Positions 1,659 through 17,816 of a DNA stretch of 17,816 bases are shown piece after piece (position 1 is the stretch's first letter; every line of letters starts with the position of its first letter). The notes beneath the pieces were generated by a model. That model worked only from the letters and a program-made list of their open reading frames with translations. It did no database searches and was not told where the DNA came from. This DNA is from a virus. Taxonomy: Duplodnaviria; Heunggongvirae; Uroviricota; Caudoviricetes. The stretch lies in the IMG/VR virus record IMGVR_UViG_2939121850_000003; one strand, given 5' to 3'. Made by a program: the position numbers and the translations under genes.

Positions 1659-4130
1659 TTAAGAATCAGCCTGACTCGGGATCAGTTTTTGCCAGATAAC
1701 TGAAACGTATTTTGCCTGGTAACGGGCGTCATCAAGTGCATTATGGCGCTCACCTTCGAATTGAATAGCCGTTCTGGCATCGAAGTCTATGACTTTCCCC
1801 AGCTCAACGATTGTGCGTACATCGCGATCGTTGTAGTAACGCCACGGGCAGGGGATCCCCTGCCGTTCGTATGAACGGCGCAAAATCGTGTTGTCGAAGT
1901 TGGCTCCATTCCCCCAAACCTGAACAAAAAATTCACCGGAGTTTTCGTCGATAAATTCCCGCAATTGTAACAGTGCATCATCTAACGGGATTTCATCGGT
2001 CATAATGGCAGATTGCGCTTCGCGTGATTGCTTAAGCCACCATTTAATGGTGTCCCGATCAATGACTCCGCCAGCAGTTTCCAGATCGATAGTCTTACTA
2101 AATTCCGGTCCCATATCTCCGGTTTGCGGATCGAAAAATATTGCACCTATTGAGGTGATCGGGGCATCAGGATTTTTTCCCATGGTTTCAAGGTCGATCA
2201 TTAGATGGTCACACGTCCTGCTGGTGGATGTGATTTCGTGATGACCGTTCACCTTAATTGGGTGATCTGCCGTCTCGCCAGTTTCATTATCGCTATTGTG
2301 ATGCTGATTGCCGCCAGTGTTCTCCTTGTGTGGATGTTCAGCGCCTTCCATTTCCTCCGGATCATCTTCCTGAACTTCAACCTGATACTCTTCATCGAAT
2401 GTTTCTTGGTATGTTGCGTCGCCCATCACCGCGCCACAATCAGGGCAGTTGCCGCCGCCGGTCTGACCGCAGGCGGTGCAGACTTTTTCCACTTCCTGTT
2501 GCGCTACTGGTTCAGGCTGTTTCGTTTCTGGCTCGTTTTGTAACGCATTTGGACTGTTTTGTTCCGCTTTTTGGTAGTTCCGTTCCGATTCATGCTGGTT
2601 CTGGTTCACAGAATCGCGGGTCTGGATCCCCTTAACCCATTTCGGATCATTCGGGTCACTAATCCCTTCAACAAATTCACCACGTGATGCAGCAAGCAAC
2701 TTATCAGCGTCAGGCTGGCTGATATTGGCTGCCTGCATAATTTTGTTTACTTCGTCAGCGGTAACTTTTATCGGCTCTGGTTGTTCTGAATCTTCAGCGG
2801 TATCTACATTTTGCGGTAAGCCCGTGTATGTGCCATTTTTTCGGGCAAAATATTCTTCTTTTGTGATTTCAGTGGCGCCAGCAGCCAGTGCCTTATCCAG
2901 ACCAGAAAGTTTGTTTGCGCGACCGTATTTTTCTCCGTCCTTATCTGCGAAGAGGAAATAGAACGGCCCCTCACGCTCTACAGATGGTTCAGCTTCCGGC
3001 GCGGTTTCATTTTTTGGGATATCAGATACCTCAGTTTCCACTGCATCAGTTTGTGTTTCTGATGACTGGAGAACATCAACAGTGCCCAGGTCTGTTTCTT
3101 CATTCTCAAACACGCCCTTTGTCGTCAGGTATTCGCAGATATATTTGTTCAGTGCTACGGGATCTTTGTGAATGTCGATCGGACGCTCACGGACAAGGCC
3201 AAAAATAGTTTGGCGGTCGTAGCGAAGGGCATCAGGCTGTTTGCGCATTGATGCCGAGATACGCTTCCAGTCTTCGCGGTCGTTGTCGATAACTTCTTTT
3301 TTTGCCCAGCGATGGATGCTGCCGTCAATGTTTCCGGCATCCACATCACCAGGCCAGAGAGCGTAGGCCAGTTCGTCATCCAGTGTTTTCCATGTCTGCT
3401 TGTATTCGCGATGAATGGCAGCAATGACCGGGCTGATTTTTCCTGTTGAATTTTCAGTGTACTGTTGATTGGCTCTGGCGCGTGCGAGATCAACAACAGA
3501 CGTGTATTTTCCGGTTTCCTTGCGTTCACCTTCGCGACGTTTTTTCCAGATGCGCATCTCTGCCTGAATTTCGGGCCATTTAGCACCAGGAATACATTTA
3601 TGCTTAACCCACCCAATGGCGTGCAACTTAAGCTCCGGATACATGGCGTTAACTTCTGGCATTTTCATCAACGCTTCAACGATATGTCCGTCGAATGTTG
3701 CCATGTCTTCCTGCAACAATTCCTGTGCGCTAATAACCATATCAACGGTGATGTTTTCACATGTGTCGAACTTAACCATGACAGCGTTCTGTACTTCAGG
3801 GGCCAGCTTGTCAAAAGTGACGTTCATCGGATCGGATTCAGTCTCAACCGGGACAAAAGAAGCAGACTCCTCATCCCAGCGGTTTTCCTGCATATATTCA
3901 GCATCCCATGAATCGAGGGCAGGGCGGGGTATGCCAGGTTTATCCTCGCAGACAATAAATTTATAAGCGCAGTCCTGAGCAGCCGGATAATGTTCCAGGA
4001 ATTGCCAGTGAAATTTTGCTCGAGCACGGCGTTCGTCGCCAGCTTCAATGGCTGTGGCTACAGCCACAGCGCCTTCTTCCCTTGTTGCCAGTTCGTCAGG
4101 AATAGCGGCGCAAATAAAGACTTTACTCAT
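1659..4130 (-). CDS. Prophage exonuclease, 823 aa, with C-terminal DEDDh (DnaQ-like) 3'-5' exonuclease domain
   Basis: C-terminal segment has Exo I (MIDLETMG), Exo II (VWGNGANFDNT) and Exo III (HNALDDARYQAKY) motifs. An acidic low-complexity linker and a C-x2-C-x7-C-x2-C zinc-ribbon-like motif (CTACGQTGGGNCPDC, coded about 2430-2500) precede it. Resembles the large proteins annotated as exodeoxyribonuclease VIII in lambdoid prophages. Start has upstream context consistent with a pL-type leftward operon. Confidence 0.8.
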   Translation of the reverse strand: MSKVFICAAIPDELATREEGAVAVATAIEAGDERRARAKFHWQFLEHYPAAQDCAYKFIVCEDKPGIPRPALDSWDAEYMQENRWDEESASFVPVETESDPMNVTFDKLAPEVQNAVMVKFDTCENITVDMVISAQELLQEDMATFDGHIVEALMKMPEVNAMYPELKLHAIGWVKHKCIPGAKWPEIQAEMRIWKKRREGERKETGKYTSVVDLARARANQQYTENSTGKISPVIAAIHREYKQTWKTLDDELAYALWPGDVDAGNIDGSIHRWAKKEVIDNDREDWKRISASMRKQPDALRYDRQTIFGLVRERPIDIHKDPVALNKYICEYLTTKGVFENEETDLGTVDVLQSSETQTDAVETEVSDIPKNETAPEAEPSVEREGPFYFLFADKDGEKYGRANKLSGLDKALAAGATEITKEEYFARKNGTYTGLPQNVDTAEDSEQPEPIKVTADEVNKIMQAANISQPDADKLLAASRGEFVEGISDPNDPKWVKGIQTRDSVNQNQHESERNYQKAEQNSPNALQNEPETKQPEPVAQQEVEKVCTACGQTGGGNCPDCGAVMGDATYQETFDEEYQVEVQEDDPEEMEGAEHPHKENTGGNQHHNSDNETGETADHPIKVNGHHEITSTSRTCDHLMIDLETMGKNPDAPITSIGAIFFDPQTGDMGPEFSKTIDLETAGGVIDRDTIKWWLKQSREAQSAIMTDEIPLDDALLQLREFIDENSGEFFVQVWGNGANFDNTILRRSYERQGIPCPWRYYNDRDVRTIVELGKVIDFDARTAIQFEGERHNALDDARYQAKYVSVIWQKLIPSQADS

Positions 4131-5912: not shown

Positions 5913-6335
5913 GTGGCAAAAGTTTTTACACAAGAAGAGCGGGAAAAAATTAAAGGGCAGGTTGTTGAACTCGTACGCCGGAGTGGGCGTGAGACGTTAC
6001 GGCAACTGGAAGTCAAGACAGGTGCGACAAGATATCTGATGAGCGTTCTCGCAAGAGAGCTGGTTGCCAGCGGCGATGTATACAACTCTGGTTACGGGTT
6101 ATTCCCGTCTGAACAGGCGCGTAAGGACTGGCAAAATGCCCGTAAAAAGCTCTCAAGGGCAAAGCTGAAGGAACCATCTGCGGTTGATCCGGACCTTATC
6201 TGGTCATTACCTGACGGAGAAATACGTCGTTACGACAGGCGTCATAATATGATTTGTACTGAGTGTCGTAAAAGCGAAGTTATGCAGCGCATATTGTCGT
6301 TTTATCAGGGGGATGTCCGGTATTTATTGAAGTGA
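5913..6335 (+). CDS. Hypothetical protein (140 aa), possible DNA-binding protein
   Basis: GTG start at 5913 preceded by a strong Shine-Dalgarno (cAGGAGGg at 5902-5909). Lies 41 bp after the rep-like gene, so probably co-transcribed. N-terminal segment ETLRQLEVKTGATRYLMSVLAREL looks HTH-like. Confidence 0.65.
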   Translation: MAKVFTQEEREKIKGQVVELVRRSGRETLRQLEVKTGATRYLMSVLARELVASGDVYNSGYGLFPSEQARKDWQNARKKLSRAKLKEPSAVDPDLIWSLPDGEIRRYDRRHNMICTECRKSEVMQRILSFYQGDVRYLLK

Positions 6336-6403
6336 CGAGATTAAAGTGCATTAGTTCAGATGCAAATTGACATTTTGTGGCACAGGGTAGAGCTAGCGTG
6401 GTT

Positions 6404-6427
6404 GTCCGCTTTGTGCCAAGAGCGGAC
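6404..6427 (+). repeat. 24-bp palindromic junction element, copy A (GTCCGCTTTGTGCCAAGAGCGGAC)
   Basis: 7-bp perfect stem GTCCGCT/AGCGGAC with 10-nt loop, between convergent genes (5913-6335 plus, 6465-7409 minus). 22/24 identical to copy B at 7620-7643. Confidence 0.8.
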
Positions 6428-6464
6428 TTTGCAAAATGGGGGTTATTTCAATCAAAACGTAACG

Positions 6465-7409
6465 TCACAACCAGCCGACGCTCTCTCGCCATTTATAATT
6501 AGTAACTTTATCATTTTCGCTTATTTTTTTAGATATAGAGCGCGGCTCTCTTCCTAGATACTCAGATATTTCTATCGGGGACAAATCAAAATCAACAAGC
6601 ATGACTCTAAGTTTTTCCATTTCCTTTAAAGTCCAAGGCTTGCCATAATTTTCATAAAGAGATACCTTATGCTCCCTGATAGTTCGCTTTCTCTGAGTTT
6701 CACTTTCCCTCTGAAAAATCTCGCTTTTAAATTGTGAACGGAACTCTTTACAGAAGTTGTTATCAGTTTTTTTGTTATATAGATTGCTAAAAATAAGCTG
6801 GGATGCCGGGTCTAAATCAGGTGTGTTAATAATGAAAACTTTGACCTTTTCCATATAGGGATATTCAATTTTACCCAATATGCTTAATTGCTTTATATTA
6901 AAAAAACCTCTCAAATCAAAAGATTTAATGAGCTTTGATTGGATTACACTTTCAATCCTGCTTGCATTTAAATAACAGTACTTTGCCATTGGAAGGGCCC
7001 ATACTACCAGTTGAGGAATATATTTTTCTAATGCAATGCTCTGCCAATCAGTATCAAAGGTTTGGCTTTTTGCTAGCATGTTTTTCGGCAAATCAGAATA
7101 CATTGTGGTAGATGCCCATATCTTATAATCATTCGCCAAGGCTTGATAGTATTTTGTGTGGTTATGAATTTTATAAGCTGACATGAAGCGATAAACGTCT
7201 TCGTCGTGACCAGCGTCGTAAATTGTTCGATTTCCTCTAAGATAACCGTCGTAATGTTCGGTTATCCTTCTACCTACATTACAACTTACCCCAACGTAAA
7301 CCACACGACTGAAAAGTCCTTTATGGACAATAAGATAAACTCCGCTACAGCCAGATTTCCTGGCCTCTGATAGAGAACCTAAAAATCTCCATTCCATAAT
7401 TAAATCCAT
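6465..7409 (-). CDS. GIY-YIG nuclease-domain protein (314 aa) with C-terminal HTH-like region
   Basis: N-terminal GVYLIVHKG...VVYVGVSCNVGRRITEHY matches the GIY-(N10)-YIG-(x)N...R...H nuclease signature. C-terminal WTLKEMEKLRVMLVDFDLSPIEISEYLGREPRSISKKI looks like a DNA-binding helix-turn-helix. The gene is strongly AT-rich relative to the flanking prophage genes (by eye). Confidence 0.8.
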   Translation of the reverse strand: MDLIMEWRFLGSLSEARKSGCSGVYLIVHKGLFSRVVYVGVSCNVGRRITEHYDGYLRGNRTIYDAGHDEDVYRFMSAYKIHNHTKYYQALANDYKIWASTTMYSDLPKNMLAKSQTFDTDWQSIALEKYIPQLVVWALPMAKYCYLNASRIESVIQSKLIKSFDLRGFFNIKQLSILGKIEYPYMEKVKVFIINTPDLDPASQLIFSNLYNKKTDNNFCKEFRSQFKSEIFQRESETQRKRTIREHKVSLYENYGKPWTLKEMEKLRVMLVDFDLSPIEISEYLGREPRSISKKISENDKVTNYKWRESVGWL

Positions 7410-7577
7410 AATTATTGCTACTGTTTTTGTTTATCATTATTTTCGTGAAACTTCAACAATTTTATCCAAAAGCTAAGGGCAAAGACTTATATAATTATAC
7501 TTGTCATCGTTAGCGATTATATAGAGTAGTGGCGCTGACCTGCTCCCTGGTGATTCACACAGAATGCTGTTAGTAAT

Positions 7578-7643
7578 GTCCGTTCCTCGCTCTCAGCGGA
7601 CCTTCAGCTCAGTGATATCGTCCGCTCTGTGCAAAGAGCGGAC
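7578..7643 (+). repeat. Two tandem copies of the 24-bp junction element (B0 7578-7601 GTCCGTTCCTCGCTCTCAGCGGAC; B 7620-7643 GTCCGCTCTGTGCAAAGAGCGGAC)
   Basis: Read directly. B forms a 9-bp perfect stem with a 6-nt loop. B0 shares the GTCC...GGAC ends and the central CGCTC. Located between the GIY-YIG gene start and the 449-aa gene end. Confidence 0.8.
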
Positions 7644-7956
7644 GTTGGTATGCAAGAGCCCTCCAAAAGTTGATGGTTGGTTTGCAGGGGGGCTTAAAGA
7701 AACTGCACTTATCAAGTTGAAGTTCTGTATTCAGCGAAATCGTAGCACTCTGACGATAAGTAACTCCGGTACTCCGCTCTTCGATGAAGAACCAGAGTAA
7801 TCCCCCCGAAAAACCAGCGCATCAAAATTGGATCTTCAGCGGTAGCTTATCGGCTATCGGAAGTACAGGTGTGGATTCGTGGTGAATTGCTTTGATAATA
7901 AACGATTAATACGGAAAAACGCATTAATCATTTATTAGCTTTTAGTAAACCACAAT

Positions 7957-9306
7957 TTATTCCGTTTTACATATCATAGTAGTCGATTGGAGAATATAGT
8001 TTCTGGGAATGTACTCTTCAAAGTGTTCGTCCTTTTTAAATACATGAACTACATTTGGGAATAATTGATAGTCAACAGGGTGTATAGCGTTTGGATTATG
8101 GTACATGTACATGGCTGTACACCATGGTTCTTGATAGTTAGGGTCACTTACATCGGCTGAAAATGGATGTGGGGCTGCATCCTGATCAGTTTTAACACCA
8201 CTGACGTACACTTTGAATCCACTCGCCTCTACACCTGCAAGAATTCCCATCCGGTTAAACTTAGGTATGGTTGCTTGAGTAGTGAGTAAAACGGCAGAAA
8301 CATAATTATTTTGTTCTGAGCCAAAAAAGTTCGACTTGATACTTCTATTTTCATCTGTATGTCTTTCAATAGAAATGCCTGACTCAATATCAATCCCGTA
8401 CAAATAGCTATGCAAGGCTTCGCTTGAGAAGGCCATGGACATTCTTTTTGAATAATCCTGCATTGCTATGACAAATGGTTTGTTCTTTGTATGGTTGAGT
8501 TCCCAGTAATGAACTTTCTCTGGCTCAGGGCAATGCCGGACTTTTTTTAATAAACTTCTTGCAAACTTAAAAGGCATGACATTTAGAACATGTTTTCTTA
8601 ATTCATCCATCTGTTCATCGTTAATGACTTTTCTTTCAAGAGGGGCTTCTGCTTCAGCAATGCTTACAGCCTCTACAGCAATTTCCACTCCAAATTTAGA
8701 TAGCAGAAAATCTGGTTGATTGTATTCTCTATTCATTTCAAAGTCGAGTTCATAAAATACAGCGTTCAAATATAATTCAAATAACCTTGAATTAAATGCA
8801 TCACTTTGAAAATCCCTTATAAATATTCCATCAGGATCTTTGAACCAGTATGCAAGTTCCTCAAGAACAATATATGCAGGGAAATGAAGAGGGTCTTCGA
8901 GGAGCATTTTTATATAAACATTCCTTTTTTTCGCTGGGACCTTACTCAAGAATAATGAAAAAGGTTTGGTTGATTCATCGCCTTGCATGAATGTACCATT
9001 TTGGTGCTGCGCCAGCATCTTTGGTATGTCATCGTTCAAATTATTAAGCAAGACATCCATTGAATCAAATGAAGCCAAGACGTTTATTGCTCTGAATTTT
9101 TTATCTAAATCCCGACCTAAGACTATTGCGTTAAAATCTTTATCAATATTGCATATGATTATTGTGGATAACAATGTTATCCCATTCCCCTCATATTTAA
9201 ACCAGCGTATCTCCTCAGAAAATGTCTTAAGGTAAGGTGAGCGACCGTAAAAATAAATATCAAATTGTTCTTTGCTGATCTCACTGAAGTGTAATCCTGC
9301 GTTCAT
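7957..9306 (-). CDS. Hypothetical protein (449 aa), no recognisable family
   Basis: Long uninterrupted ORF in the AT-rich block. ATG at 9306 is preceded by AAGGAA about 8 nt upstream on the minus strand. No Walker A, methyltransferase or other signature found by eye. Confidence 0.75.
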   Translation of the reverse strand: MNAGLHFSEISKEQFDIYFYGRSPYLKTFSEEIRWFKYEGNGITLLSTIIICNIDKDFNAIVLGRDLDKKFRAINVLASFDSMDVLLNNLNDDIPKMLAQHQNGTFMQGDESTKPFSLFLSKVPAKKRNVYIKMLLEDPLHFPAYIVLEELAYWFKDPDGIFIRDFQSDAFNSRLFELYLNAVFYELDFEMNREYNQPDFLLSKFGVEIAVEAVSIAEAEAPLERKVINDEQMDELRKHVLNVMPFKFARSLLKKVRHCPEPEKVHYWELNHTKNKPFVIAMQDYSKRMSMAFSSEALHSYLYGIDIESGISIERHTDENRSIKSNFFGSEQNNYVSAVLLTTQATIPKFNRMGILAGVEASGFKVYVSGVKTDQDAAPHPFSADVSDPNYQEPWCTAMYMYHNPNAIHPVDYQLFPNVVHVFKKDEHFEEYIPRNYILQSTTMICKTE

Positions 9307-9428
9307 ACCAATTCCTTTTCAATGAATAATTGGCCTTTAGGAGTGATTCCCTTTGTCTTTAATTCAGTTCTAACTAGTTCTTTAATCCAATAGCCTAAGC
9401 TCATCATGCAGTTGGATCATAAGACAAC

Positions 9429-9457
9429 GCCCTATAGTGCTCGTGATACTATAGGGC
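9429..9457. repeat. Inverted repeat with 10-bp arms and 9-nt spacer (GCCCTATAGT / ACTATAGGGC)
   Basis: Perfect inverted repeat read directly in the divergent intergenic region upstream of the short recombinase gene. Confidence 0.6.
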
Positions 9458-9560
9458 ATCTGACCACACTGTTAACTGGAGTAACGACTATGGCAGGAAT
9501 ACAGCATAACCAAACTCACCCCAAACTTACATAGCGCTTTCTGGCCGTGAGCATAACAAG

Positions 9561-9584
9561 GTCCACTCCTCGCTCATAAGGGAC
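9561..9584 (+). repeat. 24-bp junction element, copy C (GTCCACTCCTCGCTCATAAGGGAC)
   Basis: 18/24 identity to copy B0, including the conserved GTCC 5' end, central TCCTCGCTC and GGAC 3' end. Lies between the 449-aa gene and the recombinase. Confidence 0.6.
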
Positions 9585-9590
9585 AACCAT

Positions 9591-9623
9591 ACTCAAATCT
9601 CCCACATTGCAGGAGATTTGAGT
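9591..9623 (+). promoter_or_regulatory. Perfect 12-bp hairpin sequestering the recombinase Shine-Dalgarno (ACTCAAATCTCC-N9-GGAGATTTGAGT)
   Basis: Right arm 9612-9623 contains GGAG and ends one nucleotide before the ATG at 9624. The architecture (12-bp inverted arms, 9-nt spacer) could alternatively be a protein-binding or recombination core-type site. Confidence 0.6.
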
Positions 9624-10226
9624 ATGAACACGTCACCGTGGAACAAAGACCGTATCATAGGCCAAAAAAGACCACTTCAGATATCTCATATCTGGGGTAT
9701 CCGAATCCGACTTGAACTGGAAGGTAAAACTCGCGATTTAGCTCTGTTCAACATGGCCCTGGATAGTAAGCTTCGAGGCTGTGATCTGGTCAAACTCAAA
9801 GTATCTGATGTTGCATATGGTGGCTCTGTTTCAAGCAGAGCAACGGTGTTGCAACAGAAAACCGGTAGCCCTGTTCAATTTGAGATAACCAAAGGGACAA
9901 GAGAAGCTGTTGCTGCATTGATACAGCTTAGCAATTTGCACAGTAAAGACTTCTTGTTTCGGTCTAGGGTCGGAACTAACCAGCACATTTCAACCCGGCA
10001 ATACAACCGAATCTTTCATGGGGGGGTAGAAAAGCTTGGTCTCGAAGATTCGCTTTACAGCACACATTCCATGAGAAGAACAAAACCTTACCTGATCTAC
10101 AAGAAAACCAAGAATCTCCGGGTGATCCAACTTCTGTTGGGTCATAAGAAACTGGAAAGCACAGTCCGTTATCTGGGCATTGAAGTCGATGATGCGTTAG
10201 AGATTTCTGAATCGATTGAAGTCTAA
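9624..10226 (+). CDS. Short tyrosine recombinase (about 200 aa, FimB/FimE-like catalytic-domain-only integrase)
   Basis: From ATG 9624 (MNTSPW...); the ORF track's 9618 is a TTG. Contains an R box (TRDLALFNMALDSKLRGCDLVKLKVSDV), HSMRRT (H-x-x-R) and LLGHKKLESTVRYLG (GH...Y). Size and motif spacing match the FimB/FimE family of small invertase-type tyrosine recombinases. Confidence 0.8.
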   Translation: MNTSPWNKDRIIGQKRPLQISHIWGIRIRLELEGKTRDLALFNMALDSKLRGCDLVKLKVSDVAYGGSVSSRATVLQQKTGSPVQFEITKGTREAVAALIQLSNLHSKDFLFRSRVGTNQHISTRQYNRIFHGGVEKLGLEDSLYSTHSMRRTKPYLIYKKTKNLRVIQLLLGHKKLESTVRYLGIEVDDALEISESIEV

Positions 10227-10230
10227 GGTT

Positions 10231-10268
10231 GTCAGGGCTGCAACAGCAGCCCTGTGCCATAAGCGGAA
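10231..10268 (+). repeat. Stem-loop (CAGGGCTG-caacag-CAGCCCTG) and possible expanded variant of the junction element (copy E)
   Basis: 8-bp perfect stem beginning 7 nt after the recombinase stop, with no U-tract. The segment begins GTCAGG and ends CATAAGCGGA, loosely resembling the GTCC...GGAC elements. Confidence 0.4.
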
Positions 10269-10585
10269 GTATTTAACAACTATCAGTGTTGTTCAACAGA
10301 TAAAGGGGCACTTGATTTTTTCTGTTCTCAGGAAATGATAAAAGCGCGTCGGTTCAAGCCTGCTTAACGGGAGTTTGTTAATCCTGTTGCCGTGACGTTT
10401 TGACACCATTATGATGGGGAGACACTTAATGTATGAAGGTTCCGCCACTTATACCTGTCCAACAACTGCCTCGGATGTTTCTTTGTATGAATAAGTGGTA
10501 ATGAGTAGTGAATCGCTAACAGTCACCCGAACAATCGGTGCCTGCAATTAATTCTATATTCTAAACGAGGGGGAGATTATTACAC

Positions 10586-11566
10586 ATGAAATTTAAGGAC
10601 AAGAACCTTAAGGCTCTCGCGGAATGTATCATAGGAGATAATAAGGCATTTCTGTATCGTTCAAGCAGTCACATCACTGAATTTTTCCAGGACTGCGGCA
10701 TGGATGTTACTCATGACGGATCCACTCGGTGGAAATGGACGGCCCAGAGGCTTGAAGAACTTCTTTATGAGCCACAGTCAAAGCCACATACTTTGCCGGA
10801 AAGGTTTGTTCATGTGCTCAGAACTTTAATGTTAAAAGAAGATGCAATGGATGACGATCCAGGAAGATTAAAGGCGCTTGAAGAACTGAACAAGCCTTTG
10901 ATGCGGGAAGGCTATGAGGCATTCTATGGTGACGATCGCCTTTTGTATATACGCCATACCGATACCAAAACGGTTTCAGTCAGTAATAACCCTCATCGGC
11001 CCTTAACGCCTCACGAAGTAGAATGCAGAAGGTTACTGACCGCGTTTCTTGATACCTGCTCAGAAGATGAGTTAATAGAAGATATTCTCCTTCCTTTATT
11101 CCGGCAACTTGGTTTTCACCGGATAACAGCAGTGGGACATAAAGATAAAGCGCTGGAATACGGGAAAGACATCTGGATGAAGTTCACACTGCCAACTCAG
11201 CATGTTCTTTATTTCGGCATTCAGGCAAAAAAAGGTAAGTTGGATGCGTCCGGTGCCAGCAAATCTACGAATTCAAACGTGGCAGAAATCTTCAACCAGG
11301 TACTGATGATGCTTGGCCATGAAATATTTGACCCAGAAACAAATAGAAAGGTGCTGGTAGATCATGCCTTTATCGTTGCTGGCGGAGAAATTACTAAACA
11401 GGCGAGGAACTGGCTGGGCGGGAAACTTGATGCCAGCAAAAGAAGCCAGATAATATTTATGGACCGGGAAGACATTCTTAATTTATATACTGTAAGTAAT
11501 GTACCTCTGCCAACAGGTGCTCTCATCTCTGATGATGCCGTTAAGAACGATGATATTCCTTTCTAA
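10586..11566 (+). CDS. Protein with C-terminal Mrr-like PD-(D/E)XK restriction-endonuclease-type motif and uncharacterised N-terminal domain (326 aa)
   Basis: ATG at 10586 preceded by gaGGGGGAGa. C-terminal segment ITAVGHKDKALEYGKDIWMKF...HVLYFGIQAKKGK shows the D...(I/V)QxK arrangement of Mrr-type nuclease cores. The N-terminal 170 aa or so have no motif I recognise. Confidence 0.75.
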   Translation: MKFKDKNLKALAECIIGDNKAFLYRSSSHITEFFQDCGMDVTHDGSTRWKWTAQRLEELLYEPQSKPHTLPERFVHVLRTLMLKEDAMDDDPGRLKALEELNKPLMREGYEAFYGDDRLLYIRHTDTKTVSVSNNPHRPLTPHEVECRRLLTAFLDTCSEDELIEDILLPLFRQLGFHRITAVGHKDKALEYGKDIWMKFTLPTQHVLYFGIQAKKGKLDASGASKSTNSNVAEIFNQVLMMLGHEIFDPETNRKVLVDHAFIVAGGEITKQARNWLGGKLDASKRSQIIFMDREDILNLYTVSNVPLPTGALISDDAVKNDDIPF

Positions 11567-11648
11567 TCAGAAGTACGTCTTTTTCTGAAAGAATACGTGA
11601 TAGGTAGCCACACCACACCTTTAGTGACCCCTTAATCTGGTAATATAA

Positions 11649-11682
11649 CAGCCCGTATGAATGTCCGCGGCATCGCGGGCTG
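11649..11682 (+). terminator. Possible terminator-like stem-loop downstream of the Mrr-like gene (CAGCCCG...CGGGCTG, inner CCGCGG palindrome)
   Basis: 7-bp outer stem followed by an A/T-rich stretch (aaatttattaaaaatac). The U-tract is imperfect. Confidence 0.3.
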
Positions 11683-11790
11683 AAATTTATTAAAAATACT
11701 TATTCATCAAGCTGGAGTAGTTTGCCGAGTAACTGTAAACGCCCAACTTAACCGGACCATTCACTTTTAGATTGCTACCAGCAAACCAAC

Positions 11791-11814
11791 TTCCGTTTCT
11801 CGCTCAAAGCGGAC
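11791..11814 (+). repeat. 24-bp junction element, copy D (TTCCGTTTCTCGCTCAAAGCGGAC)
   Basis: 20/24 identity to copy B0. Located between the Mrr-like gene and the small-ORF/hok region. Confidence 0.6.
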
Positions 11815-11993
11815 TAGAAGGTTAGCTTGCGTCGGACTTGGCGTATTTAAAGAAGTGCTGGTGGTAACTGGTTGTTGTGTTCCATTTCTACAAAACAAAA
11901 TCACAGAAACTATACCCAATAGTTATATTGAATCAATGATGAGACAGCCTCATATTTATCAGAACTGGTGTACGTCCAATACAGGAGGTTGTC

Positions 11994-12083
11994 GTGCTGG
12001 TTCTCAAATATGCGCTAGCTATTGCGGCTGTAATGGCAATTTATTGTCTTGCTATTGTTCTTACGGATCGCCTTTCTGATTGA
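11994..12083 (+). CDS. Candidate small hydrophobic membrane peptide (29 aa, MLVLKYALAIAAVMAIYCLAIVLTDRLSD)
   Basis: GTG start 5 nt downstream of a perfect AGGAGG (11983-11988). Single predicted TM helix with a charged C-terminus. Not in the ORF track because of its length. Location next to a hok locus. Confidence 0.4.
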   Translation: MLVLKYALAIAAVMAIYCLAIVLTDRLSD

Positions 12084-12237
12084 TTTTATATTGGCGAGGT
12101 GACGGGAGTTAAGTAGAATTGCTGCGGGTGCTTGAGGCTATCTGCCTCAGGCATGAACACCAAAGGCAGATAGAGAAAAGCCCCAGTTAACATTACGCGT
12201 CCTGCAAGACGTTTAACATTAATCTGAGGCTCAATCT

Positions 12238-12450
12238 ATGAACGGCAAATCTAGGTTAGCCTCTTACGTGCCGAAAGGCAAGGAGAAGCAGGCTATGAAG
12301 CAGCAAAAGGCGATGTTAATCGCCCTGATCGTCATCTGTTTAACCGTCATAATGACGGCACTGGTAACGAGGAAAGACCTCTGCGAGGTACGAATCCGAA
12401 CCGGCCAGACGGAGGTCGCTGTCTTCACAGCTTACGAACCTGAGGAGTAA
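12238..12450 (+). CDS. mok-like in-frame leader extension of the hok gene (70 aa reading frame)
   Basis: The ORF starts 19 codons upstream of the hok start in the same frame, as in chromosomal mok/hok loci. Whether it is translated independently is inferred. Confidence 0.45.
   Translation: MNGKSRLASYVPKGKEKQAMKQQKAMLIALIVICLTVIMTALVTRKDLCEVRIRTGQTEVAVFTAYEPEE
12295..12450 (+). CDS. hokD: Hok/Gef-family type I toxin (51 aa), hokD/relF-type
   Basis: MKQQKAMLIALIVICLTVIMTALVTRKDLCEVRIRTGQTEVAVFTAYEPEE matches my recollection of E. coli HokD (RelF) almost exactly and the Hok family signature (TRKDLCEV...E/TEVAAF). Internal ATG at 12295. Confidence 0.85.
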   Translation: MKQQKAMLIALIVICLTVIMTALVTRKDLCEVRIRTGQTEVAVFTAYEPEE

Positions 12451-12517
12451 GAGACCAGGCGGGGGAGAATCCCTCGCCACCTCTGATGTGTCAGGCATCC
12501 TCAACGCACCCGCACTT

Positions 12518-12549
12518 AACCCGCTTCGGCGGGTTTTTGTTTTTATTTT
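12518..12549 (+). terminator. Rho-independent terminator downstream of hok (AACCCGC-TTCG-GCGGGTT followed by TTTTTGTTTTTATTTT)
   Basis: 7-bp GC-rich stem, TTCG tetraloop and long T-tract read directly, 68 nt after the hok stop. Confidence 0.8.
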
Positions 12550-12665
12550 CAACGCGTTTGAAGTTCTGGACGGTGCCGGAATAGAATCAAAAATACTTAA
12601 GTAGCGCGCAGGGATAAGAGGGATGGTCCCTTAAAGGGGAGAGCTAATTATCCGGAAGGATTCTG

Positions 12666-12917
12666 ATGATGAACATCGAAGAACTGCGTAAAATTTTTTG
12701 TGAAGATGGCCTCTATGCTGTGTGCGTTGAAAATGGAAATCTTGTTAGTCATTACCGCATTATGTGTTTGCGAAAGAATGGGGCTGCGTTAATTAATTTT
12801 GTGGATGGTCGAGTGACAGACGGATTTATCTTGCGCGAAGGTGAGTTTGTCACTTCATTACAGGCACTGAAAGAGATTGGAATAAAAGCAGGCTTTTCAG
12901 CTTTTGCAGAAGAATAA
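12666..12917 (+). CDS. Hypothetical protein (83 aa)
   Basis: ATG preceded by GGAAGG with about 7-nt spacing. Its size and position just downstream of hokD match the rem gene of the K-12 Qin prophage, but I cannot confirm the sequence from memory. Confidence 0.55.
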   Translation: MMNIEELRKIFCEDGLYAVCVENGNLVSHYRIMCLRKNGAALINFVDGRVTDGFILREGEFVTSLQALKEIGIKAGFSAFAEE

Positions 12918-13263: not shown

Positions 13264-14619
13264 GTGCGGGTATTACTTCGACCTGTTCTGGTACCGGAAC
13301 TCGGGCTGGTGGTCGTTAAGCCGGGCCGTGAATCCATGCCGGTATTCCACAATACCCGGGTAACCGAAGCGCTCGACACGACATTAGGACTGCTTACAAA
13401 AACAGGACGAGACTGGAACACGCAGCATACTGATAACATTAATAAATTTATACCAATTGCAGGCAGTACAAACGGCCCGGCAGGCTCTATGGTTCTTGGC
13501 GGCATTCATGTTCAATTTAGTAAAAATTATGCTGTGCAGTTCGGAGGCCGCAATTCCGGTTTTTGGGGAAGAACAATTGAAAATGGAACGACACAGGAAT
13601 GGAAGAAATTACTAACAGTAGACGATCTCAATTCATCTACCGATCTTGCTGTCAGGTCATTAACCACATCTAACCCGGTAAAATCTGGCGGAGGGCGAAT
13701 TGATGTCCTTGGAAGCACGTCAGACTATAGCAAAATGGATTGCTTTGTACGTGGGTTTGATAGCACCGGTAATTCTCTCGTGTGGGCGTTGGGTTCATCA
13801 GTCGGCGTAAGTAAGATGCTATCGCTAAAAAATTTCTTTAGCGGAGCTGAGATACTGTTAAATGGTAATGACGGCGCGGTTCAACTCAAAACAGGTGCTG
13901 TTAACGGGGCTACAGCGCAGACGCTCACTATCAACAAGAATGAGGTTAACTCAACCGTTGATTTAACCCTTACAAAGCAATCAGGGACTGGTAATCGTTT
14001 TGTTTTACAGAACTCAGGTAATGCAGAACTACCGTTTTCTGTCAGGGTGTGGGGTTCCAGTACTCGACAAAACGTTTTTGAGGTTGGAACGTCTGCTGCG
14101 TATCTGTTTTATGCGCAAAAAACGTCAGCAGGCCAGTTGTTTGATGTAAATGGCGCTATTAATTGCACAACGCTGAATCAGTCATCAGACCGCGACCTTA
14201 AAGACGATATTCTCGTTATCAGCGACGCGACGAAAGCAATCCGTAAAATGAACGGATACACCTACACGCTCAAGGAAAACGGGATGCCTTATGCTGGCGT
14301 TATTGCACAGGAAGTAATGGAGGCGATACCAGAAGCTGTGGGATCGTTTACTCATTATGGTGAAGAGTTGCAAGGTCCGACCGTTGACGGCAACGAGCTA
14401 CGCGAAGAAACTCGCTATCTTAATGTTGACTACTCCGCCGTGACGGGTTTACTTGTTCAGGTCGCCCGTGAAACAGATGATCGCGTTACCGCGCTGGAAG
14501 AGGAAAACACAACGCTACGTCAAAATCTGGCAACAGCAGGCACCCGGATCAGCACTCTGGAAAATCAGGTAAGCGAACTGGTTGCACTTGTCCGGCAGTT
14601 AACAGGAAGCGAACATTGA
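13264..14619 (+). CDS. Phage tail fibre protein, C-terminal fragment with S74-type intramolecular chaperone domain
   Basis: C-terminal region has the SDxxxK Ser-Lys dyad context (SSDRDLKDDILVISDATKAIRKMNGYTYTL...) and a coiled-coil tail typical of self-cleaving tail-fibre or tailspike chaperone domains. Upstream Gly/Ser/Thr/Asn-rich beta-type repeats. The N-terminus (GTG start, odd MRVLLRPVLVPELG) lacks a tail-attachment domain, so the gene is probably truncated. Confidence 0.75.
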   Translation: MRVLLRPVLVPELGLVVVKPGRESMPVFHNTRVTEALDTTLGLLTKTGRDWNTQHTDNINKFIPIAGSTNGPAGSMVLGGIHVQFSKNYAVQFGGRNSGFWGRTIENGTTQEWKKLLTVDDLNSSTDLAVRSLTTSNPVKSGGGRIDVLGSTSDYSKMDCFVRGFDSTGNSLVWALGSSVGVSKMLSLKNFFSGAEILLNGNDGAVQLKTGAVNGATAQTLTINKNEVNSTVDLTLTKQSGTGNRFVLQNSGNAELPFSVRVWGSSTRQNVFEVGTSAAYLFYAQKTSAGQLFDVNGAINCTTLNQSSDRDLKDDILVISDATKAIRKMNGYTYTLKENGMPYAGVIAQEVMEAIPEAVGSFTHYGEELQGPTVDGNELREETRYLNVDYSAVTGLLVQVARETDDRVTALEEENTTLRQNLATAGTRISTLENQVSELVALVRQLTGSEH

Positions 14620-16532: not shown

Positions 16533-17816
16533 ATGGATTTCCAGTTATATTCGCTCGGCGCAGCGTTAGTGTTTCATGAAATATTTTTTCCTGAATCATC
16601 AACGGCAATGGCGTTAATTTTGGCAATGGGAACCTACGGTGCAGGTTATGTGGCGCGTATTGTCGGAGCATTTATTTTCGGCAAAATGGGCGACAGAATA
16701 GGGCGTAAAAAAGTGCTCTTTATTACCATCACCATGATGGGGATCTGTACTACCTTAATTGGTGTGTTACCGACCTATGCACAGATTGGTGTTTTTGCCC
16801 CCATCTTGCTGGTGACGCTGCGTATTATTCAGGGGTTGGGTGCAGGTGCGGAAATTTCCGGTGCCGGTACGATGCTGGCGGAATATGCACCAAAAGGTAA
16901 GCGCGGAATTATCTCCTCATTTGTAGCTATGGGAACTAACTGCGGAACCTTGAGCGCAACGGCAATCTGGGCCTTTATGTTCTTCATTCTCAGTAAAGAG
17001 GAACTGCTGGCGTGGGGATGGCGTATACCGTTCCTGGCGAGCGTTGTCGTGATGGTCTTTGCTATCTGGTTACGTATGAATCTGAAAGAAAGCCCGGTCT
17101 TTGAGAAGGTTAATGACAGCAACCAACCCACAGCAAAACCTGCACCTGCTGGTAGCATGTTCCAGAGCAAATCCTTCTGGCTGGCAACAGGGCTGCGTTT
17201 TGGTCAGGCGGGTAACTCCGGGTTAATTCAGACTTTCCTTGCAGGCTATTTAGTGCAGACGTTATTGTTTAACAAAGCAATTCCAACAGATGCATTGATG
17301 ATTAGTTCGATTCTCGGCTTTATGACCATTCCGTTCCTTGGTTGGTTATCCGATAAAATTGGTCGCCGGATCCCGTATATTATTATGAATACCTCCGCGA
17401 TTGTGCTGGCATGGCCAATGCTTTCTATCATTGTAGATAAAAGCTATGCCCCGAGCACCATTATGGTTGCACTGATTGTGATTCATAACTGTGCGGTGCT
17501 GGGATTATTTGCTCTGGAAAACATTACCATGGCAGAAATGTTCGGCTGTAAAAACCGCTTTACCCGGATGGCTATTTCTAAAGAAATTAGTGGTCTTATC
17601 GCTTCCGGTTTTGGTCCTATCCTGGCGGGTATTTTCTGCACCATGACGGAATCCTGGTATCCGATCGCCATTATGATCATGGCATATTCAGTAATTGGTT
17701 TAATCTCTGCGCTGAAAATGCCAGAGGTGAAAGACCGTGATTTAAGTGCGCTGGAAGACGCTGCGGAAGATCAACCGCGTGTTGTAAGAGCTGCGCAACC
17801 TTCCAGAAGTCTGTAA
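16533..17816 (+). CDS. ydfJ: MFS transporter, metabolite:H+ symporter (MHS) family, 5'-truncated (ydfJ-like)
   Basis: 427-aa ORF with MHS-family signatures (GDRIGRKKVLFITITMMG, WGWRIPFL, 12-TM-type hydrophobicity). It begins inside the conserved TM1 motif (expected ..EWYDFYLYG.., found MDFQLYSL), so the N-terminus is missing or frameshifted. The adjacent hokD and tail-fibre genes match the K-12 arrangement where Qin interrupts ydfJ. Symbol assigned from context and recalled length, not from a search. Confidence 0.75.
   Translation: MDFQLYSLGAALVFHEIFFPESSTAMALILAMGTYGAGYVARIVGAFIFGKMGDRIGRKKVLFITITMMGICTTLIGVLPTYAQIGVFAPILLVTLRIIQGLGAGAEISGAGTMLAEYAPKGKRGIISSFVAMGTNCGTLSATAIWAFMFFILSKEELLAWGWRIPFLASVVVMVFAIWLRMNLKESPVFEKVNDSNQPTAKPAPAGSMFQSKSFWLATGLRFGQAGNSGLIQTFLAGYLVQTLLFNKAIPTDALMISSILGFMTIPFLGWLSDKIGRRIPYIIMNTSAIVLAWPMLSIIVDKSYAPSTIMVALIVIHNCAVLGLFALENITMAEMFGCKNRFTRMAISKEISGLIASGFGPILAGIFCTMTESWYPIAIMIMAYSVIGLISALKMPEVKDRDLSALEDAAEDQPRVVRAAQPSRSL

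Follow-up and report, generated by a model that had tools for sequence, protein, structure and literature searches.

The window analysed here is a stretch of 17,816 nucleotides assigned to a virus of the Caudoviricetes (IMG/VR record IMGVR_UViG_2939121850_000003), and it is a degraded lambdoid (Qin/Rac-like) prophage adjoining rspB in Escherichia coli. The open reading frame (ORF) at 9624–10226, placed between the prophage DUF977 gene and hok/sok, encodes a small tyrosine recombinase which, judging from sequence comparison, is probably the site-specific recombinase of a gene-cassette array, i.e., of an integron-like exchange platform that is not an integron. We put the probability of this reading at about two in three. 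Read from left to right, the window consists of backbone, an L site, cassette A, an R-18 nt-L junction, cassette B with the anti-phage gene PD-T7-1, an R site, the recombinase, a degenerate L site (L'), cassette C, an R site, and backbone again, the three cargo cassettes and the recombinase being bracketed by the sites at 6404, 7578, 7620, 9561, 10245, and 11791 (Table 1). These two kinds of 24-bp site, which delimit each module of the array, are its actual repeated sites; they were overlooked in the earlier note on this DNA, which had pointed to three inverted repeats around the recombinase gene as possible recombinase core sites or translational control hairpins.

The sites came to light in a repeat search of positions 6300–12700, which uncovered a family of imperfect palindromes of two 24-bp types, both with 9-bp inverted arms flanking a 6-bp centre. 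The consensus of L is GTCCGCTCT-GTGCCA-AGAGCGGAC and that of R is GTCCGCTCC-TCGCTC-AnAGCGGAC, the L centre GTGCCA differing from the R centre TCGCTC in Enterobacterales. The pattern GTCCG-N6-GC-N6-CGGAC matches the window five times compared to 0.23 expected, always on the plus strand and within 6404–11814. When only the outer 5+5 bases were used, so that the scan was blind to the centre, about 20 clear sites were found in eight loci, and each carried either centre motif or a one-base variant of it. Permutation tests detected no arm-arm covariation beyond the shared consensus, neither in the L and R sites nor in the R-linker-L connectors. Because the arms are conserved without such covariation the sites look like duplex protein-binding sites and not like folded single strands; a reading of the connectors as folded attC-like single strands was dropped as the covariation was not significant.

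Exchange of sequence at the centres of these sites is suggested by the comparison of about 95 loci, a sample of loci rather than of whole pan-genomes. About 650 further E. coli genomes share just some 700 bp with the window (about 9562–10270, 90–94% identity), comprising the recombinase gene and both its flanking hairpins, and this module is found in unrelated surroundings, namely in CP4-like islands by GTPase/Ag43 genes, in a dynamin/patatin island, in the ypjA island, and in the tail-fibre/sheath hotspot of a P2-like prophage. The ends of the module are sharp in an alignment of seven contexts. When contexts were compared with their sites aligned, identity switched at the 6-bp centre for cassettes A and B and, in 7 of 10 contexts, for the recombinase module; the other three module contexts are mis-registered in the site-aligned display, and homology there begins at the same place. 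Variable arm positions stay with their own flank. In the L site at 6404 the left half is constant with the prophage backbone and the right half varies with the cassette, the R site at 9561 is from its centre rightwards part of the conserved recombinase module, and the L' site is divided between the recombinase module (left arm and centre) and cassette C (right arm).

Near-identical copies of a cassette are found in more than one array. Cassette A is also present, 99.2% identical over 6402–7592, in a CP4-like island of strain RM10410 with other flanks, and cassette B stands alone in strain JE86-ST05, in the same prophage hotspot and 99.6% identical over 7620–9584. A cassette encoding a 269-aa protein (WP_000161640.1) is common to ETEC4075, where it lies in the prophage hotspot, and LZYWN_4, where it lies in an island array next to the recombinase, with 99.7% identity over 1024 nt and homology beginning at the L centre. 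The hotspot between DUF977 and hokD had a different content in each of six strains, invariably with L at its left and R at its right end.

The recombinase consists of a catalytic domain only. Its sole Pfam match is PF00589 Phage_integrase, with 63.9 bits (gathering cut-off 27.1, E = 2e-17) over residues 35–184. Neither the catalytic residues R51, K79, H148, R151, H174, and Y183 (the RKHRHY set) nor an N-terminal PWNK..G..P motif vary among 41 diverse homologues. Of the proteins of solved structure XerD is the nearest in sequence, and its residues H244, R247, H270, and Y279 align with H148, R151, H174, and Y183. With a ratio of nonsynonymous to synonymous substitution rates (dN/dS) of 0.03–0.20 relative to other copies, the gene is intact and under purifying selection. 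This agrees with the short tyrosine recombinase of the earlier note, and the catalytic tyrosine, for which that note had asked, is present. The likeness to FimB/FimE proposed at the same time did not hold, as the models for invertases of that type (NF007371 and NF007370) gave 27.5 and 19.2 bits against curated cut-offs of 222 and 221. IntI models, which include the IntI-specific extra domain, gave 17.2 (TIGR02249) and 17.6 bits (NF011946) against 265 and 435, and the Xer equivalog models were likewise far from satisfied (XerA_Arch, the best, 54.6 against 220 bits; XerC 44.7 against 335; XerD 27.6 against 330). These scores place the enzyme outside the FimB/FimE, Xer, and IntI families. The start codon is taken as ATG 9624 according to the RefSeq annotation; ORF calling extends the frame upstream to TTG 9618.

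In this reading cargo modules, each reaching from the centre of an L site to the centre of the next R site, alternate with connectors that reach from the centre of an R site to the centre of the next L site, the connector being either a 42-bp piece (two half-sites and the 18-nt linker) or the recombinase gene itself. The enzyme would recombine L with L and R with R, and not L with R. Cassettes, connectors, or runs of them could in this way be excised, inserted, or swapped between site-bearing DNA molecules, and recombination of L with L or R with R within one array would excise or insert a cassette plus a connector. Swapping between molecules would keep a fixed orientation because the L and R centres differ, and the system would be the natural counterpart of recombinase-mediated cassette exchange (RMCE) with heterospecific sites. 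Since sites without a recombinase gene are found in many arrays, action of the enzyme in trans is likely.

Sites and recombinase are widespread. Among 5426 complete E. coli genomes 636 contain the R-18-L junction and 932 the recombinase module. In a collection of one genome per species at least 547 loci matched with an identity of 60% or more, distributed over Enterobacterales, Alteromonadales, Pseudomonas, Burkholderiales, and methylotrophs, and relatives are carried on 347 plasmids, alpha-proteobacterial ones included. Multi-cassette arrays with cassettes to the left and right of the gene are present in Erwinia, Buttiauxella, Phytobacter, and Leclercia and on plasmids of Pectobacterium and Klebsiella, and nearly all cassettes in these arrays share the orientation of the recombinase gene. 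Diverged sites with the centre CGGCCA still surround the gene, as inverted copies, in Pseudomonas and others; diverged flanking sites are also present in Halomonadaceae (Vreelandella), Lysobacteraceae, and others. In phage P2, fun(Z) is flanked by an L site (P2 15335–15358) and an R site (17432–17455), a P2-like prophage hosts the recombinase in the Z/fun hotspot, and P2-like Yersinia phages retain a 74-nt remnant of the module. No L or R sites were found in the P2 tin/old region or in the P4 reference genome. fun(Z) is a classical lysogenic-conversion gene of P2 that blocks T5, and the P2 backbone immediately outside its two sites is itself inverted (AATCTGAA ... TGTCAGAT).

The cargo was surveyed across arrays by scanning 94 cassette ORFs. 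Defence genes among these were DRT1a, SIR2+HerA (two loci), PD-T7-1, PD-T7-5, mad8, a Lit-like peptidase U49, and AbiEii-like ATPases, and the other cargo included GNAT acetyltransferases, NUDIX proteins, LysR regulators, MFS and ArsB transporters, an iron-uptake operon, and many ORFs of no assigned function. Much like that of chromosomal integrons, the cargo is made up of general accessory genes enriched in defence. In the window the divergent neighbour of the recombinase, PD-T7-1, was recognised by PADLOC with E = 7e-157. For the 314-aa ORF of cassette A there was no family match; the annotation of a related E. coli record gives a GIY-YIG nuclease family protein. The 326-aa ORF of cassette C has no match in Pfam, NCBIfam, or PADLOC and is a candidate new defence or accessory gene because it lies in a site-bounded cassette of an array that carries PD-T7-1 in an adjoining cassette.

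The inverted repeats around the recombinase gene are a second conserved feature of the locus. Two scans found exactly three perfect hairpin-type inverted repeats in 9300–10600, and repeats with arms of at least 9 bp, of which there are three, numbered 0.07 on average (maximum 2) in 300 dinucleotide-preserving shuffles of this region. The hairpin in front of the gene had been described with 12-bp arms at 9591–9623 and the GGAG of the Shine-Dalgarno (SD) sequence in its right arm. The GGAG (9612–9615) is in the right arm as claimed; the arms are actually 15 bp long, the hairpin spans 9588–9626, and the right arm also contains the ATG (9624–9626). Folding of the RNA from 9560 to 9660, proposed at that time as a check, gave −33.3 kcal/mol (z = −4.9), a stability equalled by 0 of 200 shuffles. 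In 51% of 59 non-redundant leaders a segment 4–14 nt upstream pairs with the SD through a perfect stem of 5 bp or more, which is true of 4.3% of 486 control genes taken from these loci (p = 2e-33); this is consistent with the tight translational control that had been suggested for the enzyme. The stems vary by lineage in a compensating manner (ATCTCC/GGAGAT, GTTCTCC/GGAGAAC, GTCCTCC/GGAGGAC, and AATTCCTT/AAGGAATT). This contiguous-stem test took the place of a comparison of constrained-folding energies with control genes, which did not discriminate, a failure attributed to GC content and uncertain start codons of the controls. MAFFT followed by RNAalifold predicted no pairs in 39 leaders because the hairpins are out of register, and Rfam has no family for the hairpins or for the L and R sites.

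We read the 5' hairpin as a probable mRNA structure that limits translation and not as a recombination site, because loop (4–14 nt) and stem (4–15 bp) vary in length across the family and the SD region invariably forms the 3' arm. In the mRNA it would pair both the SD and the start codon, and its conservation suggests that little enzyme is made. The 5' arm opens with a −10-like hexamer, CATACT (9588–9593), and 43 of 64 leaders have a hexamer of the form CA[TA]nnT that ends 24–36 nt ahead of the start codon, compared to 3–9 of 64 when other stretches of equal size are taken. As this hexamer is conserved at the start of the arm, it is tempting to speculate that the transcript of the gene itself starts within the 5' arm and escapes the hairpin and that read-through from a neighbouring cassette is silenced, as in the insertion sequence (IS) IS10; this is the most speculative step of the proposed mechanism.

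Among other explanations, that the flagged hairpins are themselves recombination or binding sites, the 15-9-15 repeat being a lox-like core at which the enzyme regulates itself, could appeal to the perfect arms and asymmetric 9-nt spacer, which resemble loxP or FRT, and to a test for RNA-level selection based on the asymmetry of G·T and A·C pairs that gave no preference for RNA over DNA. It is highly improbable. The arm sequence has no further copy in the window, where the two matches are its own arms, or in seven related loci, homology between contexts runs unbroken through the hairpin spacer and breaks about 20 nt upstream within the R site, and the variable stem and loop with the SD always in the 3' arm fit an mRNA structure and not a fixed core. 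A covariance model of the hairpin, which reached only Enterobacterales and Alteromonadales, matched both strands, and was not used for pair counts, found matches essentially only just 5' of recombinase genes, second copies, or remnants. The 9429–9457 repeat belongs to the PD-T7-1 cassette, and the suggestion that the hairpins are core sites of the recombinase finds no support. A phase-variation invertase of the FimB/FimE or shufflon kind, which would flip a promoter or whole cassettes lying between inverted sites to switch neighbouring (defence) genes, is a very unlikely alternative despite the size of the enzyme, which is about that of FimB/FimE (about 200 aa), the similarity of L to the reverse complement of R, and the Pseudomonas-type loci, in which a single type of site flanks the gene in inverted orientation with identical centres and inversion would be possible. 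Beside the low scores with the FimB/FimE models, in Enterobacterales the L centre and the reverse-complemented R centre differ at 2 of 6 positions, all cassettes found in at least two contexts (A, B, and those encoding 269-aa and 367-aa proteins) keep a constant orientation relative to L and R, strains differ in cassette content rather than orientation, and there is no inverted variant among the matches listed for the 180 E. coli genomes that carry the whole array. Of the earlier proposal that the enzyme could drive inversion or cassette exchange, it is the exchange that fits the comparative evidence.

Exchange could also be brought about by homologous recombination or phage recombination of the Red/RecET type over short repeats, or by another host enzyme, the small recombinase being a passenger, a multimer-resolution enzyme, or a remnant. 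These prophages do encode recombination exonucleases (ORF 1659–4130), arrays have about 66 bp in common at the R-18-L junction, and the recombinase gene is missing from many arrays. We nevertheless consider this unlikely, since the variable arm positions always stay with their own flank and crossovers are therefore confined to the centre of about 6 bp, which is too short for homologous recombination. Moreover, the recombinase module is site-bounded in every context, diverged sites keep flanking the gene in distant clades (Pseudomonas, Halomonadaceae, Lysobacteraceae, and others), and the gene is under strong purifying selection with its active site intact. Least credible is that the 693-bp module is an autonomous IS-like element that transposes alone. 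The module is compact, has sharp ends, and occurs in many contexts, and its layout of about 700 bp with a small gene, a ribosome-binding-site hairpin, and an end hairpin is like that of IS200. Against this, copies per genome are few (median 1, maximum 3) and differ by 6–10% between contexts, unlike a recently transposing IS, the module is always located within L/R arrays with ends that are half-sites common to cargo cassettes, and the protein has the Phage_integrase fold and is not an HUH transposase, which leaves it outside the IS200/IS605 family.

Several observations weigh against a cassette array served by this recombinase. The evidence is comparative throughout and no recombination event was observed; the matches listed among the 180 genomes are single, co-linear, and 100% identical, with no sign of ongoing activity. 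Only three phage records encode a full-length recombinase homologue, and many arrays, e.g., P2 fun(Z) and JE86-ST05, are without the gene. An enzyme of 200 aa that has no N-terminal core-binding domain may need host factors or a novel mode of DNA binding. The larger sets of sites were collected with a requirement for a near-consensus centre, and the constancy of the centres in these sets is partly built in. At several loci, including two junctions of one array (L002 9709 and 10723), neighbouring cassettes are joined by one R site or by R...R with no detectable L, and such junctions are unpredicted by a simple L...R-linker-L...R model. As to the control of expression, a consensus scan upstream of the recombinase found no sigma-70-like promoter that passes and no evident −35 element, and the test on G·T versus A·C asymmetry was neutral (20 versus 18).

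The resemblance of the proposed array to integrons lies in a tyrosine recombinase beside an array of mostly single- or few-gene cassettes bounded by repeated sites and in a cargo mix as in chromosomal integrons. The R-linker-L connector, in which two simple sites form an imperfect palindrome of about 66 bp, likewise recalls the R''-L''...L'-R' arrangement of attC. The differences are that the arrays here extend on both sides of the gene, which lies inside a connector, that cassette genes occur in either orientation, and that there are two site types with different centres. The breakpoints are at the 6-bp centre and not at the G|TT at the outer end, where recombination of attC makes cassettes begin with TTRRRY, the right arm travels with the downstream cassette, site arms are conserved without covariation, which points to duplex sites, and the 200-aa enzyme scores far below the IntI cut-offs. 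In engineered RMCE a cassette lies between two sites with common arms and different spacers of 6–8 bp, and a double crossover swaps cassettes. The heterospecific Cre/lox and Flp/FRT versions share with the system proposed here the common arms, the differing spacers, the like-with-like swap, and the kept orientation, whereas this system is natural, has multiple slots, and is spread across phages, plasmids, and islands, with a heterospecificity of L and R that we infer from sequence; the enzyme is half the size of Cre and is without its N-terminal domain.

Shufflons change the 3' end of one gene by segment inversion. The shufflons of IncI plasmids (Rci/sfx) resemble the arrays in having several short sites with one conserved and one context-dependent arm and in the inverted orientation of neighbouring sites, but here each segment is a complete gene unrelated to the others, strains differ by its replacement, and no inverted segment was seen. 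FimB and FimE are likewise tyrosine recombinases of some 200 aa in which an N-terminal DNA-binding domain is small or missing, and what differs is the absence here of a single invertible promoter segment, the sites, and the context. A stem-loop that pairs the SD and start codon of an element's own enzyme is found in the fold-back inhibition of IS10 and IS50 and in IS200 tnpA, where the enzyme is a DDE or HUH transposase and not a tyrosine recombinase. In IS10 the native transcript escapes the hairpin at the ribosome-binding site and read-through transcripts are silenced. The defence hotspots at Z/fun of P2-like phages are alike in that fun(Z) lies between L and R and one P2-like prophage has the recombinase there; published hotspot studies, by contrast, define the loci by conserved flanking phage genes.

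The L and R sites and the recombinase provide a concrete and directly testable mechanism for the open question of how anti-phage genes are passed among the hotspots of unrelated mobile elements. It is an evenly balanced possibility that a catalytic-domain-only enzyme and two heterospecific 24-bp sites form a second gene-cassette platform independent of integrons, which throughout Proteobacteria exchanges cassettes among phages (as at the fun(Z) hotspot of P2), lambdoid prophages, genomic islands, and plasmids and which is the missing "mobilization function" behind rapid anti-phage swapping at hotspots. As the P4 reference genome and P2 tin/old are without sites, this could also explain the non-exchange between P2 and P4. 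If confirmed, there would be a further cassette platform beside integrons, site-delimited cassettes could be mined for new defence genes, e.g., the 326-aa and 314-aa ORFs, and a very small recombinase with natural heterospecific sites would be a possible tool for genome engineering. Full-text literature searches for the site sequences or for such a system returned nothing relevant, and novelty is limited in that Nilsson et al. (2004; Mol Biol Evol 21:1) may, by its title, already note the P2 repeats. The Alteromonas "integron" of the literature is a true IntI integron and unrelated.

Table 1. Positions of the array, its sites, the hairpins, and neighbouring features in the window.
Feature	Position	Strand	Remarks
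L site, left array edge beside prophage DUF977 gene	6404–6427	+	GTCCGCTTT GTGCCA AGAGCGGAC
Cargo cassette A	6428–7577	−	314-aa ORF 6465–7409
Connector R-18 nt-L	7578–7643	+	R 7578–7601, 18-nt linker, L 7620–7643
Cargo cassette B	7644–9560	−	PD-T7-1 anti-phage gene 7957–9306
Inverted repeat in cassette B	9429–9438 / 9448–9457		10-bp arms, 9-nt loop
R site beside recombinase	9561–9584	+	GTCCACTCC TCGCTC ATAAGGGAC
5' hairpin	9588–9602 / 9612–9626	+	Perfect 15-bp arms (CATACTCAAATCTCC / GGAGATTTGAGTATG), 9-nt loop
Tyrosine recombinase, 200 aa, catalytic domain only	9624–10226	+	Pfam match, catalytic residues
3' hairpin after stop codon	10233–10241 / 10246–10254	+	9-bp arms, 4-nt loop (CAGGGCTGC aaca GCAGCCCTG)
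L' site, degenerate left arm	10245–10268	+	AGCAGCCCT GTGCCA TAAGCGGAA
Cargo cassette C	10269–11790	+	326-aa ORF 10586–11566
R site, right array edge beside prophage hok/sok region	11791–11814	+	TTCCGTTTC TCGCTC AAAGCGGAC
sok antitoxin RNA (Rfam RF01794, 111.7 bits) and hokD toxin gene	12126–12300 (+) and about 12295–12450		Right of array
823-aa "exonuclease"	1659–4130	−	C-terminal Rv2179c-like 3'-5' exoribonuclease domain, E = 3e-66

Of the remaining two inverted repeats, the one at 9429–9457 was found exactly as described, with 10-bp arms and a 9-nt spacer; it overlaps the predicted minus-strand promoter of PD-T7-1 (TTAACA-16-TATAGT, 9475–9448, from a promoter scan) and moves together with the PD-T7-1 cassette. 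The repeat after the stop codon, described at 10233–10254 with 8-bp arms and a 6-nt spacer, is present in that place with 9-bp arms and a loop of 4 nt. This hairpin lacks a T-run and, with its 3' arm, extends into the left arm of the L' site. Its position is conserved and its sequences vary, a stem of at least 8 bp being found in 49% of homologues compared to 6% of controls (p = 3e-16), and an L-type half-site follows it directly in most lineages examined, Enterobacterales and Pseudomonas included. It may serve as the end of the mRNA, as an insulator, or as part of the site.

Some further observations concern the sites and the module. At many loci the inverted repeat of the cassette reaches 3–6 nt past the 24-bp site, the right end reading ...AGCAAT|GTCCGC and the left end GCGGAC|ATTGCT.... 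The outermost AAC/GTT-like triplets at the cassette ends recall integron core sites, and the breakpoints map elsewhere. A possible covariation between the ends of cassette C (GGAA/TTCC) was not borne out in other cassettes on inspection by eye. In an Edaphovirga array (L021 3923–3955) the 5' hairpin alone is present as a second copy, and a Buttiauxella array (L011 13794–14458) contains a second recombinase module, in which another 200-aa ORF follows an R site and hairpin.

Outside the array, the sok RNA and hokD jointly form the conserved right flank of the hotspot. The window differs from strain UK_Dog_Liverpool by one mismatch in 13.4 kb, aside from a deletion of 6,034 bp at about 13361–13362 (L001 14064–20097). 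The sequence missing from the window includes DUF968, rusA, an antiterminator, three tRNAs, a holin, and tail remnants in UK_Dog_Liverpool. Because of this deletion the 451-aa ORF at 13264–14619, with an S74 peptidase tail-fibre domain, is a fusion. The middle of the 823-aa exonuclease looks, by eye, like RecE of the Rac prophage, and if this likeness is real the protein is a domain-swapped RecE-like protein.

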